Origin: a virus
DNA: 64,000 nucleotides
Strand: one strand, 5' to 3'
Virus genome (UHGV): UHGV-0091736
The translations under genes and the position numbers were made by a program. Position 1 is the first letter of the stretch. Every line of letters begins with the position of its first letter. Of the stretch, positions 1 to 6,684 are shown in pieces. Below the pieces are notes generated by a model that was not told the DNA's origin, did no database searches, and saw nothing but the letters and a program-made list of their open reading frames with translations.

Positions 1-533
1 GCTTCGAGGGTTTCCCTGTTAACCCCCTACTCCCGCAGGATAGTCTCTACACTTTCCACTTTCGAATCCATCTACAAGCGATTCCAAAGCTCACACCAAA
101 CCTTTCTGCAAGAGCAACACCAGTGCATTCATTGTTAAGCCAGAACTCTTTAGCAGCATCCTGTCTTTCTCTATTTCTGCCAGTGTTTGATTCAATAGCA
201 TGTGCACTACCTTCTAAGATTTCTAGATGGTCAGTATTACAACAAGCTCTATTCTTGCATTTATGGTTAACTTCATAACCGTCAGGAATTTTTCCAAATT
301 CCTCTTCCATGACGTATCTGTGATACATGACCCATTTGCCATTTATCACTTTTCGAAAGTAACCGTCTTTATTTAATTTGTGTGAGATAGGGATGATACA
401 TCCTGTGCTAGTTGTTTCTAGCACTAGATCTTTCTTAGCCATATCACCTCCTAATAGCTTAGCTCGGTATTGCCCTCAACTTAATGGTCGGGTTTCACCG
501 AGTTCACCAACTTTTACATGCACAATGAAGTTT
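1..533 (-). mobile_element. Group I intron, 5' portion (3' end lies beyond window start), inserted in DNA polymerase motif C; hosts an HNH ORF
   Basis: Exon frame stops 9 codons after ..VIDMH. IGS GTGCAT (518-523, minus) pairs with exon end AUGCAU (534-539) with G.U at the splice site. R-like GUGUAGAGACUAUCC at 38-52. Collinear with the helicase intron, including a covarying helix (497-502/463-468). Confidence 0.7.
47..442 (-). CDS. HNH homing endonuclease (intron-encoded)
   Basis: 131 aa. Motif EVNHKCKNRACCNTDHLE. Located between the polymerase exon end and the intron R element. Confidence 0.85.
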   Translation of the reverse strand: MAKKDLVLETTSTGCIIPISHKLNKDGYFRKVINGKWVMYHRYVMEEEFGKIPDGYEVNHKCKNRACCNTDHLEILEGSAHAIESNTGRNRERQDAAKEFWLNNECTGVALAERFGVSFGIACRWIRKWKV

Positions 534-2225
534 ATGCATATCAATTACCTTAGCACAACGAACTCCATCCTTCTCAATCCACTTGTTAAGGAACATCATA
601 GCGTATTTCATAACAACAGCACCAGCACATTGCAGGAGTGTGTTAAGTGCTTTATGAACCATAACTTTACCAGTGGCATCTCGTCTCATTGTAATCTTGC
701 GACCATCAACACCAATCAAGTACCCTTGAGCAGCTTTCTCTGTCATGCGATCAATGAGGATTGCAATACATGGGTTCTCTGCCAAGAAACGTGCTCGCAT
801 CACTGAACCTTCATCAGCCCCGCCACCTACAATTGAACCAAGCTTAGCATCACCAGCACCATAGTTGAATGCATAGATAAATGTCTTAGCATTGTCACGA
901 GTAGGGAGACCAGCAAGTTTCTGGTTGTGGGAGTGGATATCCCCTTCGAGGAGAATATCACGATACATAATAGCAGAAGCTAAACCGCGTTCTGCCAGAG
1001 CTTTCTTAGCTGGATTATTCTCTTCGATTGCTTCAGCAAGCATATCTCTACATTCTTTGATGAGGTAGTGAGCGAGCATACGAAGTTCAAGTCCAGAACC
1101 ATCATACCCTAAGAATACTTCTTTACCAGCGGGTATGTAATATTTGTAAGCACCTACAGGTTTGTCTTTCTTCCCCGGCTTACCTTTCTCGTAAATTACG
1201 TTAGTACCTTTTCGTATATAACAACCATCAGGAACAACGTTAGTAATAACGAAAGGACGAGAGTGATCACTGTCTGAGTTATAGTCAGACTCAAACAAAC
1301 TGCGACACTCGTGACCAAACAAACCACGGGAGGGAATATTAACCACGATACGATGTTTGAATCGAAAAGTCGGCGTAGCGCAGCTGTTAGCTTCTGCCGA
1401 AAGTTTACCATCTTCGCGTTCCTTTGCTATAAGTCCACTGATAAGACCTAGCCTGTGAGCCGCTACAACACGTCTCTTAAGCAAACTTCCAACACTCCCT
1501 AGCTCACCCCCTAACCCTTCTTCAAGAGTCTCCTCGAGGTTTGTAGGAGCTGTAGGCCACTTGTTTGATGTAGCTAGTGCTTTCTTAATCTCATCAAACG
1601 TTACAGGGTTACGGCGATTAGGGTTTAATCCCAAACCAAACACGTAAGCCTTCATGTAATTCTTAGTCTTAAACCTAAAATGCTTTTCTAAGAATTTCTT
1701 GATATCAGCGTCAACCATCTCGGCTGTCTGCTTCTGCTTAGCACTGCCTCTCATCCAAGCAGTGTACCAAGCCTGATATGTTCCATACTTTCGCATGTCT
1801 TTCTTAATTTCGAAAGTATTCCAAGGCTTCTTAGATACGTTAAACTCTGGAGGAAGAAAGCCCTCATCCATAAGAGCTTCTTTAACTCGTGCATCTTTCG
1901 ATGGGTCAAAGTCTACATATTCTACACAGGTGAATGCTCCACCAATGTCTTCTCTCTTCAGCCCAACCCTATCACAATAAGCTTGAGGCCACTTCTGCAA
2001 AGCACCAGACTTCTTAAACGGCTTCATGTAAGTAGAGCCATCTAATCTCATCTTAGGTAAGAGAGGAATCAACTCTCTATCAATATTAACAATAATCTCT
2101 TTAAGGAGGTGAACATACCACCGAGCATTTCTTCGGTTGAAACTCACTCCGTGCTTTGCTTGCTTAGAGATTATATCAGCGACAGTCATCTCTGTCAAAA
2201 ATGGAAGAGCGTCCGGGTTGCTCAC
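534..2225 (-). CDS. DNA polymerase family A, polymerase domain, exon 1 (GTG start; ends at H of motif C HDE)
   Basis: Motif A LGYDGSGLELRMLAHY and motif B RDNAKTFIYAFNYGAG. AAGGAG RBS 7 nt before the GTG. ORF track 504-2225, trimmed to the predicted 5' splice site. Confidence 0.85.
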
Positions 2226-3629: not shown

Positions 3630-5348
3630 TTAAGCTTTCTTTTCCATTGCTTTAACAATCGCCTTACAGAAACCAGAACGAACAATATCATCTGATTCAC
3701 CATCTACAATCTCAGCAAACTCATACAGATCATGTTCATCAATAAAGTTAGTAGCCCAAGTAAGACCACTCTCACGACCACGCATATCATGCTGGTTAGT
3801 ATCACCCATGCAGAACAGCTGAGAGGTTTCTCCCAATCGAGTCATGATTGAGAAGGCTTCATCTTTAGTTGTGTTCTGGAACTCATCCACGATAACAATG
3901 GCATCATTGAAAGAGCGACCACGGAGATATTCCAGAGGTACAAATTCAATGTTACCATTTCCGATTTGGCATTCATAGAACCCCTTACCATATCGCTGAG
4001 TAATAACATCAATGATAGGCATCAGGTATGGTTCAAACTTCTCACGCATCCCCCCCGGAAGTAACCCAAGAGAGTTACCCATGCCGACCGAAGGGCGACT
4101 CAGAATGATCTTCTGAATCTTACCACTCTTCAGTGCATCAATAACTGTGGAAGTGATTACAAAGGTCTTACCACAGTTACCTGTCACGAAAATGTTATCA
4201 TCTCGACGGAGCAACAGAGCACCTGTTGAGGTTGTAAAGCAATATTTAAAACCATCCTCCGTCTTCATCTTTGTGATCACAGCTTTCCCAGATTGTGGGT
4301 TGTTTGGGGTAATACTGATATGTGTCTGTTTAGAGAAATAAACACGATACTCTAGAGATTTACGAGTATATCCACCATACTCCCGACCAACTCTGTCGTA
4401 AGTTATGATAGATGATTTGTAACCACACTGCATTCCTACAAACTGGATATAGTCTGCATCATCTTTATCGGAAGTAAAGAAAGGTGGTAGTCTATTTCCT
4501 TGTAGGGCAAAACCCCCGTCCCAGAATTTAATCTCATCAAAGATGATTTTAGCATCACTCTTGTTACACAAAGGCCAGTCTTTATACCTTTTAGTCGCAC
4601 CTAGAAGAGAGAAAGATATTACATGAAACCCTGTATCATCTGACTTTTCTGAGTAATCTAAATGGAGAGTATCCAATAACTCTTTGAGTCGAGAAATCTT
4701 CCTCTCTTTCTTTAATCTGAAGACGAATCGCGAGGTGGACTCTGTTTCCAAGTGGGCATCAGCCTTGATGGCAACATGAAGACGTAATTCAGGTTCAGAT
4801 AGACCTAAACTTTTCCCTGAAACAAAGTTGGATGTAGTTTTAATTAGACCCTCAAACCCTATCTTCTTCTTGTGGTGCCTTGAAAGAAGATCAGATACCT
4901 TGATTTTGTTCGCTTTGTCTTTATCTCCCTTACGATAATAAACGACATTATGGTCATCACATAACGCCTGAGATATCCCACGGTATGTTTTAAACAAGTT
5001 CAACTCTTTACACTCTTGTTTAATATAAGCTACAGGTTTTTCTAAATGAGACTCTCCTGTGGTTAAGTTTACTGCTGTTATTAAATCACCTTCCACATAG
5101 TCAGAAATCTTTTTCCATCCAAACTCTGAGAGAAACTCGGTATCCTTATCAACACAGCCCGCAGGAGCGTCTGTGAACACAACTTGTTTAGTCTTAATAG
5201 CATTGAGTAGCTCAGACTGAAACTGGTTCTGAGGGACTACAGGCTTTGCTAAAACCACCTCTTCATACTCTCGCTTACCCTTACGAGTAACAAGTGCTTC
5301 CCGACGAAGGTCTTTCCGTGATTCTTTCCTTGATTGACGACGACTCAT
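3630..5348 (-). CDS. phoH: PhoH-like ATPase precursor containing an intein
   Basis: Walker A is split as ..DAPAG | intein | CGKTFV... The C-terminal part has ILSRP, LLPG, IVIVDEFQN (Walker B) and GD..Q, as in PhoH. Confidence 0.8.
   Translation of the reverse strand: MSRRQSRKESRKDLRREALVTRKGKREYEEVVLAKPVVPQNQFQSELLNAIKTKQVVFTDAPAGCVDKDTEFLSEFGWKKISDYVEGDLITAVNLTTGESHLEKPVAYIKQECKELNLFKTYRGISQALCDDHNVVYYRKGDKDKANKIKVSDLLSRHHKKKIGFEGLIKTTSNFVSGKSLGLSEPELRLHVAIKADAHLETESTSRFVFRLKKERKISRLKELLDTLHLDYSEKSDDTGFHVISFSLLGATKRYKDWPLCNKSDAKIIFDEIKFWDGGFALQGNRLPPFFTSDKDDADYIQFVGMQCGYKSSIITYDRVGREYGGYTRKSLEYRVYFSKQTHISITPNNPQSGKAVITKMKTEDGFKYCFTTSTGALLLRRDDNIFVTGNCGKTFVITSTVIDALKSGKIQKIILSRPSVGMGNSLGLLPGGMREKFEPYLMPIIDVITQRYGKGFYECQIGNGNIEFVPLEYLRGRSFNDAIVIVDEFQNTTKDEAFSIMTRLGETSQLFCMGDTNQHDMRGRESGLTWATNFIDEHDLYEFAEIVDGESDDIVRSGFCKAIVKAMEKKA
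4176..5156 (-). mobile_element. Intein (327 aa) in the PhoH P-loop, with degenerate LAGLIDADG-like endonuclease region
   Basis: Starts CVDKDTEFL (block A-like) and ends ..NIFVTGN followed by +1 Cys. Excision restores APAGCGKT. Candidate dodecapeptides are LHVAIKADAHL and FDEIKFWDGGF. Confidence 0.7.
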
Positions 5349-5530
5349 TTACGCTCTCCAATTTCTTCGTAATGACACTCAGTGGTTAAACAATCTTTAC
5401 AGATTGCTGTGTAAACCCTGACGTTAGTAAATCGTTTGTTCTTCCCTTTGGTTGGAGAGCCTTTGGCAAGCTCTCTGATAACCTTGTTACTTAAATGAAG
5501 GTTTGTTCCTTCACATTTAGAGCACTTCAT
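5345..5530 (-). CDS. small zinc-ribbon protein (61 aa)
   Basis: CSKC...CKDC pairs; overlapping stop/start with neighbours. Confidence 0.55.
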   Translation of the reverse strand: MKCSKCEGTNLHLSNKVIRELAKGSPTKGKNKRFTNVRVYTAICKDCLTTECHYEEIGERK

Positions 5531-5846
5531 GGTTCATATCTTTATGAATCCTGTAAACAGCTGTCGCCATACAAGCAACAGCCTCATTGTGTGGGAGGTG
5601 CATCCCTGTAGAACCATCCCAATCTTTGAACTCATTGTCAAAGACTCCAGTAGGCTCTGGATACAGAGCTTGCAGCTCCACTAGATCATTAGCAACTTGT
5701 TGCCATTTATCATCAGACCAGATAGGGTCATCCAACCAGTAATACAAATAGGAATGGATGATCAATTGCCTTCTGTGCCGATTAATTACTTCAGCGGGAC
5801 TTATTTCACTTCCATTTGAAGTCCTAAATGTATTACTGTCAATCAT
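5517..5846 (-). CDS. hypothetical protein (109 aa)
   Basis: ORF track; ATG start. Confidence 0.55.
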   Translation of the reverse strand: MIDSNTFRTSNGSEISPAEVINRHRRQLIIHSYLYYWLDDPIWSDDKWQQVANDLVELQALYPEPTGVFDNEFKDWDGSTGMHLPHNEAVACMATAVYRIHKDMNHEVL

Positions 5847-6028: not shown

Positions 6029-6684
6029 CAGTTCTCCAAAGTTTTCTTCAGAGCTGCCCATGAGATTGGGTAGAGCTTAGCCATCTCTTCATCCAGAGAT
6101 TGGGCAAACACTCGAACTTCATATTGAGCGTGAGAGGAGAGTCGCTGACGACACAACTCAAACCAGCCATACAAAGAACCGGTCCACACCCACTCAGTGA
6201 TCATTCCCTGAGGAAGAACAAATCGAGCTTGCTCTGGTGCAATAAATTCAATCAACTTGTCATATGCTGCTAGAGAAGCTTCATATGCATCATTAATCAG
6301 CATTAATGCTTCAGCTCGCTCTCCGTCAATGAGTTGAATCCCTGAACCTGCATGGAGGTCCGAAGGTCTCGCAAAAATCTCTTTAGGGATGAAGACTTCA
6401 ACTGCTCCATCTTTATACCGCCGGGACATTTCGTTCCACGAGAATCCAACCTGATGCTTGCCCAACTGTCTCGCAATTGCGATAGGTGCTTTGCATCGGA
6501 AACTGACTTGCGGGTGTCGGAATGGGGTAACATGCTTCTCTCTTGCGAGGAAGTTGATGAGACGTTCATCACGTTCATTTAAATCACCTTCACGGGTTAC
6601 GCCAAAGGAAACTCGAGCTGCGTTTACTACGCTACGATCACTTCCCATAGCTTCGATTAATGTTGCTTGTAGTTGTTCATTCAT
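6028..6684 (-). CDS. thyX: FAD-dependent thymidylate synthase ThyX
   Basis: 218 aa. ThyX signature region ..RHPQ..WNEMSRRY.. with the typical length. Confidence 0.85.
   Translation of the reverse strand: MNEQLQATLIEAMGSDRSVVNAARVSFGVTREGDLNERDERLINFLAREKHVTPFRHPQVSFRCKAPIAIARQLGKHQVGFSWNEMSRRYKDGAVEVFIPKEIFARPSDLHAGSGIQLIDGERAEALMLINDAYEASLAAYDKLIEFIAPEQARFVLPQGMITEWVWTGSLYGWFELCRQRLSSHAQYEVRVFAQSLDEEMAKLYPISWAALKKTLEN

Follow-up and report, generated by a model that had tools for sequence, protein, structure and literature searches.

The window analysed here is the whole 64,000-nt stretch of the virus genome UHGV-0091736. It raises the question of why its PhoH-like open reading frame (ORF) is 572 residues long, with 327 of these lying inside the Walker A motif (P-loop), and how such a protein could yield a working ATPase. 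An earlier note, made from the DNA letters only, had read the insert at 4176..5156 as an intein, and had asked whether splicing is efficient with a penultimate Gly. The ORF length, the insert length and the coordinates given there all proved exact, and we consider it very likely that the insert works as a mobile intein of the LAGLIDADG type, seated in the Walker A loop of the PhoH-like ATPase that a phiEco32/kuravirus-like Escherichia coli phage encodes. The phage assignment follows from ~93% identity to EcoN5, ES17, SR02 and phiEco32 over 25 kb. We regard the find as modest, a genuine but fairly ordinary intein, as PhoH hosts and P-loop sites are already documented.

The insert in the P-loop of PhoH

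The precursor gene is divided as follows (slashes in sequences mark splice junctions):

3630..5348 (-): PhoH precursor ORF (N-extein, intein and C-extein), 572 aa, calculated 65.0 kDa; from the ORF list
5157..5348 (-): N-extein, aa 1-64, with the first half of Walker A (..DAPAG) at its end; protein identical to SR02 PhoH
4176..5156 (-): intein, aa 65-391, 327 aa, calculated 37.4 kDa; a LAGLIDADG endonuclease domain set within a Hint splicing domain
3630..4175 (-): C-extein, aa 392-572 plus stop, opening with the second half of Walker A (CGKT); Pfam PhoH match, protein identical to SR02 PhoH

The insert (CVDKDTEFL...NIFVTGN) is in frame between ...FTDAPAG and CGKTFVITS, and its removal restores the P-loop APAGCGKT, as the earlier note had said. 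The Pfam PhoH match to the whole 572-aa protein is confined to aa 386-569; the joined exteins (245 aa) cover positions 2-205 of the 205 in that profile (E-value 1.7e-56). PHROG 32482 (phrog_32482), an intein-containing PhoH family of 589 positions, spans aa 10-570 with the insert included (3.4e-127), and the weaker PHROGs matches of the precursor are to intein-bearing ribonucleotide reductase (RNR) and terminase large subunit (TerL) families. The intein has a GC content of 38.6% against 43.6% in the exteins. At the base composition of the insert the chance of a 327-codon open frame is ~2.6e-10, and these codons are free of frameshifts and stops both in the window and in a second allele, the 572-aa gene of metagenome contig MAVE01000087.1 (L020), which has the same junctions and 95% nucleotide identity.

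The uninterrupted form of the gene is common in related phages. A megablast search with the gene found phoH without the intein in 80 of 80 related phage records, only the extein 43% of the query being matched, as a single 738-nt gene. When we aligned the predicted spliced product to the intein-less PhoH of Escherichia phage SR02 (L001), a check proposed in the earlier note, 245 of 245 residues were identical, the 18 nucleotide differences were all synonymous, and the DNA junction was exact (GGC/TGT, in the context ...CCTGCGGGC/TGTGGTAAG...). Because of this exact empty site, the Cys of APAGCGKT is native to the PhoH lineage and would serve as the +1 nucleophile of the intein.

An AlphaFold (AF2) model built from an alignment of the insert with ten metagenomic homologues (alignment A1) had a pLDDT of 90.2 and a pTM of 0.87. 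Its best Foldseek matches in the PDB were to the TliVMA, PhoVMA, PI-SceI and PI-PfuI inteins (E-values 8e-14 to 1e-9), with the AceL NrdHF intein, I-DmoI, I-Tsp061I and Hedgehog Hint next in line. The insert shares with the class 1 LAGLIDADG inteins PI-SceI/VMA, PI-PfuI and TliVMA, its best whole-model structural matches, the two-domain architecture, Cys1, the block B His, the terminal Asn and a +1 nucleophile; it differs from them at F:4 and G:6, where they carry Asp and His respectively, and identity is only 9-15%. Sequence profiles led to a similar place: a profile of the family matched the AceL NrdHF intein (6zgq, 4.8e-8), and a Hint-only profile matched 6zgq (2.2e-10), the Spl DnaX mini-intein (9.4e-6) and Hedgehog (8e-4). 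The model, its structural matches and the Hint-only profile all point to a Hint fold.

A tblastn search of phage genomes with the insert found 267 records, with at least 80% of the insert matched in 260. The annotated hosts in these records were PhoH, RtcB, DNA primase/helicase, RecD-like, TerL, RNA ligase, NAMPT, RNR alpha and beta, TOPRIM primase and phosphatase, and in each host protein the relative was in frame with both exteins. A single element that recurs in this way, in many unrelated conserved proteins, bears the hallmark of an intein. An exhaustive search with the family HMM over 1.84 billion cluster representatives gave 13,481 matches at E<=1e-3, 7,652 at E<=1e-10 and 1,681 at E<=1e-30. 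The best representatives provided a wider sample of 168 full-length copies, 121 of which have the [STC]GK of a P-loop directly after the intein; the P-loop is a classic site of intein insertion (PMC4760082, PMC5050341). Two relatives in other PhoH proteins (P0011 and P0012) are mini-inteins of 165-167 aa that lack the middle domain. Some polypeptides (P0015-P0023 and others) carry two or three inteins of the family, e.g., at 148-451 and 605-929 of P0015.

The closest counterparts by host were the inteins of Acinetobacter phages YMC13/03/R2096, AM24 and P577 (PHROG 32482), which occupy the same P-loop site of PhoH (..GFAG/.../TSKT) with the same architecture; over the full 327 residues identity is 45%, and the ADAHL form of LAGLIDADG motif 1 is shared. 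They differ in having Thr+1 and Ser at B:7 and in exteins that are only distantly related; their records name the gene PhoH or hypothetical and make no mention of an intein. In bacteria, PhoH ranks in the top 15 intein hosts by frequency, with 21 inteins (Novikova et al. 2015, PMC4760082); the PhoH inteins of M. fortuitum and M. xenopi are of class 3 (Kelley et al. 2018, PMC6195587). These bacterial inteins are likened to ours by host protein family, not by sequence or exact site; they are actinobacterial or Deinococcus chromosomal elements, and the mycobacterial ones have the full class 3 signature (WCT) and no Cys1.

Between the window and the metagenome allele there are 15 residue differences (12 in the intein, 3 in the exteins), none at catalytic or invariant positions. 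Nei-Gojobori estimates for this pair were:

Intein: dN/dS 0.093; synonymous 42.5, non-synonymous 16.5
Hint part: dN/dS 0.071; synonymous 20.5, non-synonymous 6.5; dS 0.28
Endonuclease part: dN/dS 0.114; synonymous 22.0, non-synonymous 10.0
Exteins: dN/dS 0.036; synonymous 22.0, non-synonymous 3.0

The low dN/dS in the Hint and endonuclease parts indicates that both domains are under purifying selection, which speaks for splicing activity and more indirectly for endonuclease activity. The earlier intein call is thus backed by 80 empty-site alleles, a Hint and LAGLIDADG model, profile matches, many hosts and purifying selection.

The two alleles differ in other respects as well. Beside the phoH-intein gene, positions 14-577 of the metagenome contig match window 6058..6621 (thyX) at only 74% identity, and dS is higher in the intein (0.23) than in the exteins (0.15). 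The thyX divergence and the higher intein dS are hints of possible mosaicism or of separate histories of the intein and its flanks.

Conserved blocks and the probable initiating cysteine

We located the splicing blocks with the wider sample and with a 28-sequence alignment (the window, 9 metagenomic and 17 phage homologues, and the Bethlehem RDF intein):

5106..5156 (-): block A (CVDKDTEFLSEFGWKKI); putative nucleophile Cys1 (protein Cys65), in 28/28 and in 165/165 aligned copies
4938..4979 (-): block B (GISQALCDDHNVVY); B:7 Cys66, B:10 His69, B:12 Val71
4206..4256 (-): block F (DGFKYCFTTSTGALLLR); F:4 is Cys306 (protein Cys370), F:13 His lacking
4173..4196 (-): block G and +1 residue (NIFVTGN/C); Thr325 G:5, Gly326 G:6, Asn327 G:7, Cys+1 is protein Cys392

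Here we found an in-frame insertion in a conserved motif, Cys1, a block B with Cys in place of Thr or Ser at B:7, a terminal Asn and Cys+1. The N-terminal Cys, +1 Cys, terminal Asn and penultimate Gly of the earlier note are thus all present, and its CDDH is block B (Cys66-x-x-His69). In block A, D3, T6, E7, G13 and W14 are near-invariant. The B:10 His is found in 168/168 copies (28/28 in the smaller alignment), B:7 is Ser in 130, Thr in 21 and Cys in 17, and B:12 is Val in 102, Ile in 22, Met in 14, Phe in 10, Leu in 8, Cys in 8 and Trp in one. In block F, Cys306 is invariant (168/168), Tyr305 occurs in 166 and Arg317 in 167. G:5 is Thr in 155 and Ser in 11 (24 Thr, 2 Ser and 2 Cys among the 28), the G:7 Asn is present in every copy of both sets, and the +1 residue is Cys in 77, Ser in 78 and Thr in 13. 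The sole F:4 exception seen was in Rheinheimera phage Barba35A (L017, 301-1245), where a MAFFT alignment put Gly in place of the block F Cys (..MASVGIETVNG..) with Cys1 and T-G-N kept; there are 82 sister records, of which Barba35A is the one checked.

The invariant block F Cys (YCF) was passed over in the earlier note, and is a more unusual residue than the penultimate Gly. With it, the family pairs Cys1, the nucleophile of class 1 and invariant here, with two of the WCT positions that mark class 3 inteins (PMC4031507, PMC5222942), namely an invariant F:4 Cys and a G:5 Thr. The third, a Trp at B:12, is lacking (Val71 in the window), and the class 3 trait of having no nucleophile at residue 1 is also missing, Cys1 being present. 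In class 3 inteins the F:4 Cys is the branch nucleophile (PMC4031507, PMC7891396); that F:4 Cys also occurs in inteins outside class 3 was already known to specialists (PMC4031507). What makes the family of biochemical interest is that the nucleophile of class 1 occurs together with two signature residues of class 3, both C-terminal histidines being absent.

Cys1 is probably needed because it is strictly conserved, unlike the variable non-nucleophile at position 1 of classical class 3 inteins, and Cys306 is probably needed because it too is conserved. We favour a class 1-type start at Cys1 as the likeliest, and Cys306 may be a stand-in for the class 1 coordinating Asp, an acyl relay, or the true initiator. 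The sole Cys1 exception is P0025, a terminase-like protein whose family intein (residues 32-365) starts with Pro1 (..LIVGPFG/PLSNDTEFL...FITGN/SGKSS). Block B, both LAGLIDADG motifs, YCF and TGN are all preserved in it, and we note it as a candidate for a class 3 intein derived naturally within the Cys1 family.

Two characterized inteins bear on this choice. The AceL NrdHF split intein (PDB 6ZGQ; Hoffmann et al. 2020, PMC7891396) is the best sequence match among solved structures, and shares with the family its block B (GFDQKVSPNHRMIY, against the consensus GIDQxLSxEHxVxY), the F:4 Cys, the T-G-N end, the absence of His at F:13 and G:6, and phage origin. It differs in having Ala1 and an M-C-T triplet (B:12 Met) and in being proven class 3; in being naturally split, with a GIY-YIG gene between its halves and no LAGLIDADG domain; and in its host, the RNR NrdF rather than a P-loop protein, with Ser+1. 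A PDB search with a 37-residue block F/G consensus peptide missed 6zgq, in which the crystallised protein carries C124A and N146A, so the C-terminal correspondence with AceL NrdHF rests on the residue numbers in the paper. The RDF (phosphoesterase) intein of mycobacteriophage Bethlehem (Kelley et al. 2016, PMC5050341) is likewise similar in having Cys1, TxxH (TANH), the F:4 Cys (VWCL), T-G-N and a LAGLIDADG domain in 317 aa, and after extraction (L019; protein residues 95-411) it matched positions 10-314 of the family HMM with 49 bits. It is distant, with pairwise BLAST similarity in the endonuclease part only, its host is a metallophosphoesterase and not a P-loop ATPase, it has Ser+1, and its assignment to class 1 was made without block F Cys mutants.

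It is possible, if rather unlikely, that splicing is of class 3 type, with Cys306 initiating and passing the N-extein to Cys+1, and with Cys1 either chemically dispensable or used for folding, redox control or endonuclease function. The F:4 Cys in 168/168 copies and the G:5 Thr in 155/168 supply two of the three WCT positions, and the closest solved relative, AceL NrdHF, combines S-x-x-H-R-M, F:4 Cys and T-G-N with Ala1 and is experimentally class 3, its C124A and C124S mutants being dead (PMC7891396). WCT inteins starting with Ser1 or Cys1 are mentioned by Tori et al. 2010. The Pro1 start of P0025, with all other motifs intact, also fits this route. Tori and Perler reportedly found in 2011 that WCT inteins with Ser1 or Cys1 splice by the class 3 route. 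Weighing more heavily with us, Cys1 was kept in 165/165 aligned copies despite identities of 23-45%; B:12 is Val, Ile or Met and not Trp; B:7 is Ser, Thr or Cys in a TxxH-like motif typical of the class 1 spring-loading of residue 1 (PMC7891396, PMC6195587); and Kelley et al. assigned the Bethlehem RDF intein to class 1 (PMC5050341).

We suggest, tentatively and with more doubt than conviction, that the Cys1/(S/T/C)xxH/Y-C-F/T-G-N family resembles class 1 and gave rise to one or more class 3 lineages (the AceL NrdHF type with Ala1; P0025 with Pro1) simply through loss of Cys1; in members that have Cys1, its thioester, the F:4 Cys branch and the +1 residue would act in series. In the view of Beyer et al. 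2020, class 1 cannot have given rise directly to class 3; they held such an intermediate to be implausible and proposed instead that the Hint fold evolved convergently (PMC7664689). A family in which both nucleophiles are present, and in which Cys1 is missing from occasional members, would bridge the two classes naturally.

Returning to a start at Cys1, the conserved residues and the experiments on relatives let us infer the following pathway. The 65-kDa precursor would have a split P-loop (APAG/CGKT) and could not be active as an ATPase. Once the Hint domain folds, Cys1 (protein Cys65) would turn the Gly64-Cys65 bond into a thioester, aided by Cys66-x-x-His69; the N-extein would be handed to Cys+1 (Cys392), either directly or via the block F Cys306; and Asn327 would cyclise without a penultimate His, as in T-G-N relatives. 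An S-to-N shift would then give a 27.6-kDa PhoH identical to that of the intein-less relatives, so that PhoH could become an ATPase only after splicing.

Four cysteines lie at catalytic-block positions (Cys1 in A, Cys66 in B, Cys306 in F and Cys+1 in G), which leaves room for redox gating, in which a reversible disulfide among them would hold PhoH inactive when oxidised and the intein would be a switch as well as a parasite. Redox trapping of a catalytic F:4 Cys is known in the class 3 Msm DnaBi1 P-loop intein (PMC6195587), and disulfide-bonded precursor conformers were seen in the G316H mutant of the Bethlehem RDF intein (PMC5050341). For the present intein redox gating is pure inference, and the B:7 Cys is a minority state (17/168), so that a switch depending on it would not be family-wide. 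We consider such a switch unlikely, though it is compatible with, and not exclusive of, an actively splicing intein.

The penultimate glycine and points against an active intein

The penultimate His (G:6) is a frequent but not obligatory intein feature, and its replacement by Gly326 was the basis for the worry in the earlier note. That worry is answered by the family norm and by published splicing of relatives. Gly occupies G:6 in 160/168 copies of the wider sample and in 28/28 of the alignment, and the near-invariant T-G-N C-terminus is the norm of the family rather than a defect. Inteins without a penultimate His are known to splice (PMC7891396, PMC4031507, PMC5050341). AceL NrdHF, which ends in T144-G145-N146 and lacks both the F:13 and the G:6 His, splices with a half-time of ~3.8 min and is inactivated by G145H (PMC7891396); the Bethlehem RDF intein, also with a penultimate Gly, splices completely in E. 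coli, and G316H slows it so that precursor accumulates (PMC5050341). Such T-G-N inteins are fast, clean splicers and as such are useful in protein engineering.

That the intein is nonetheless impaired or dead, its penultimate Gly and B:7 Cys crippling Asn cyclisation and leaving the phage little or no functional PhoH, strikes us as very improbable. A penultimate His normally aids this step (PMC4031507, PMC5050341), the F:13 His that substitutes for it in some inteins is lacking too, and phoH may be dispensable, in which case a dead insert could persist. Against this, Gly is normal in the family, the two T-G-N inteins studied are efficient and are both harmed by a change of Gly to His, dN/dS on the Hint part is 0.07 at a dS of 0.28, which shows that selection keeps the splicing domain, and all 327 codons are intact in both alleles.

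Several observations do weigh against a functional, mobile intein. With F:13 and G:6 His both lacking, catalysis of Asn cyclisation is unexplained, as it was left for AceL NrdHF (PMC7891396). B:7 is Cys in the window and in the metagenome allele, whereas it is Ser or Thr in 90% of the family, and F:4 is Cys, whereas class 1 inteins usually have Asp. LAGLIDADG motif 1 has Ala134 where most relatives have Gly (Ala in 8/168). The intein is rare in its phage group, having been found on one metagenome contig and in none of the 80 phage records, which weighs on efficient homing there. Finally, neither the whole protein nor the insert matched any intein, Hint or LAGLIDADG model in Pfam (Intein_splicing, Hint, Hint_2) or NCBIfam (intein N-/C-terminal) at E-values up to 10, so that recognition depends on custom profiles and a predicted structure. 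A phmmer search of PDB sequences with the insert likewise gave chance matches only (ribosomal protein L24). With the endonuclease removed, the sole curated match was a weak one to PT-HINT (0.009, below cutoff), and a few relatives had weak Hint, Hint_2 or Intein_splicing matches. The profile search that the earlier note recommended as a check would therefore have misled if confined to Pfam and NCBIfam, while the custom family and Hint-only profiles did match solved inteins. Curated HMMs thus overlook a very large, mostly phage-borne family (the 1,681 cluster representatives at the strictest threshold), and as a consequence its hosts are routinely labelled as oversized PhoH, TerL or RtcB, as hypothetical, or as split genes.

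That the insert is not an intein at all, and is instead an accessory domain kept in mature PhoH or an intron with a homing-endonuclease ORF removed from the RNA, is barely credible: the curated intein HMMs are silent and the primase/helicase of Pseudomonas phage KIL4, with a homologous insert (L004, 1-1551), is annotated as an intron-like two-piece join, but a Walker A G/CGKT with 327 residues inside it cannot bind nucleotide, the Hint fold comes with blocks A, B, F and G, a terminal Asn and a +1 nucleophile, the element continues the reading frame of both exteins whatever the host protein, and relatives have been shown to undergo protein splicing (PMC7891396, PMC5050341).

The endonuclease domain, proposed homing and distribution

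The features of the middle domain are:

4290..4856 (-): LAGLIDADG homing-endonuclease domain, intein residues ~101-289 (approximate borders, from the helix/strand layout of the model)
4749..4781 (-): LAGLIDADG motif 1, LHVAIKADAHL; putative catalytic Asp133 (protein Asp197)
4509..4541 (-): LAGLIDADG motif 2, FDEIKFWDGGF; putative catalytic Asp213 (protein Asp277)

Both segments had been picked out in the earlier note as LAGLIDADG-like, and they align with the two motifs of the family. Motif 1 (VAIKAD133A) corresponds to the consensus xAxxADG, with Asp in 160/168 copies, and motif 2 (KFWD213G) to the consensus WDG, with Trp in 165/168, Asp in 160/168 and Gly in 154/168. The predicted two-motif pseudo-dimer fold (alpha-beta-beta-alpha-beta-beta-alpha) resembles, by Foldseek, I-DmoI, I-Tsp061I and the endonuclease domains of PI-SceI and PI-PfuI. 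PF14528 (LAGLIDADG_3) was detected in 3 of 11 relatives and not in the window sequence. This is the domain missing from the mini-inteins P0011 and P0012, and P0003 and P0013 have lost the LAGLIDADG acidic residues. The endonuclease of the Bethlehem RDF intein is toxic in E. coli (PMC5050341).

The likely target of the endonuclease is the P-loop-coding DNA of intein-less phoH. In this scheme the freed 37.4-kDa intein would cut the intein-less phoH of co-infecting kuraviruses (...GCTCCTGCGGGC/TGTGGTAAGACC...), and repair would then copy the intein into the cut allele.

Relatives of the intein at the DNA level were not found by megablast and blastn (distant mode included) in 50,697 phage records, by megablast in 5,426 E. 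coli genomes, or by back-translated patterns in IMG/VR or GTDB genomes; the close DNA allele on MAVE01000087.1 turned up only in a metagenome scan. As far as the searched collections show (0/80 phage records, one metagenome contig), this is the first intein of its kind in the kuravirus group, and the rarity of this selfish homing element in the phiEco32/kuravirus group makes for a convenient natural system in which to follow intein invasion by co-infection. Escherichia phages such as 19-1-2, whose TerL carries a related intein, were rejected as donors: they belong to Avunavirus, and their intein is only 31.5% identical. Around the junction, from -154 to +89 nt, the window does not differ from SR02, but we dropped the idea of a co-conversion tract, as the P-loop region is conserved anyway and SR02 was the sole intein-less allele compared. 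Within the rest of the window, tblastn with family members found no second copy of the intein.

Two other ORFs of the window deserve mention. At 5517..5846 (-), a stand-alone 109-aa ORF has a Pfam match (2e-35) to Nlig-Ia, domain Ia of DNA ligase, which is N-terminal and binds NAD+; no ligase catalytic domain is attached to the ORF. The 573-aa ORF at 504..2225 (-) matches DNA_pol_A over its C-terminal 200 residues only (9.5e-14); as the records of kuravirus relatives contain two 'DNA polymerase' CDSs, the polymerase of the window may come in separate pieces.

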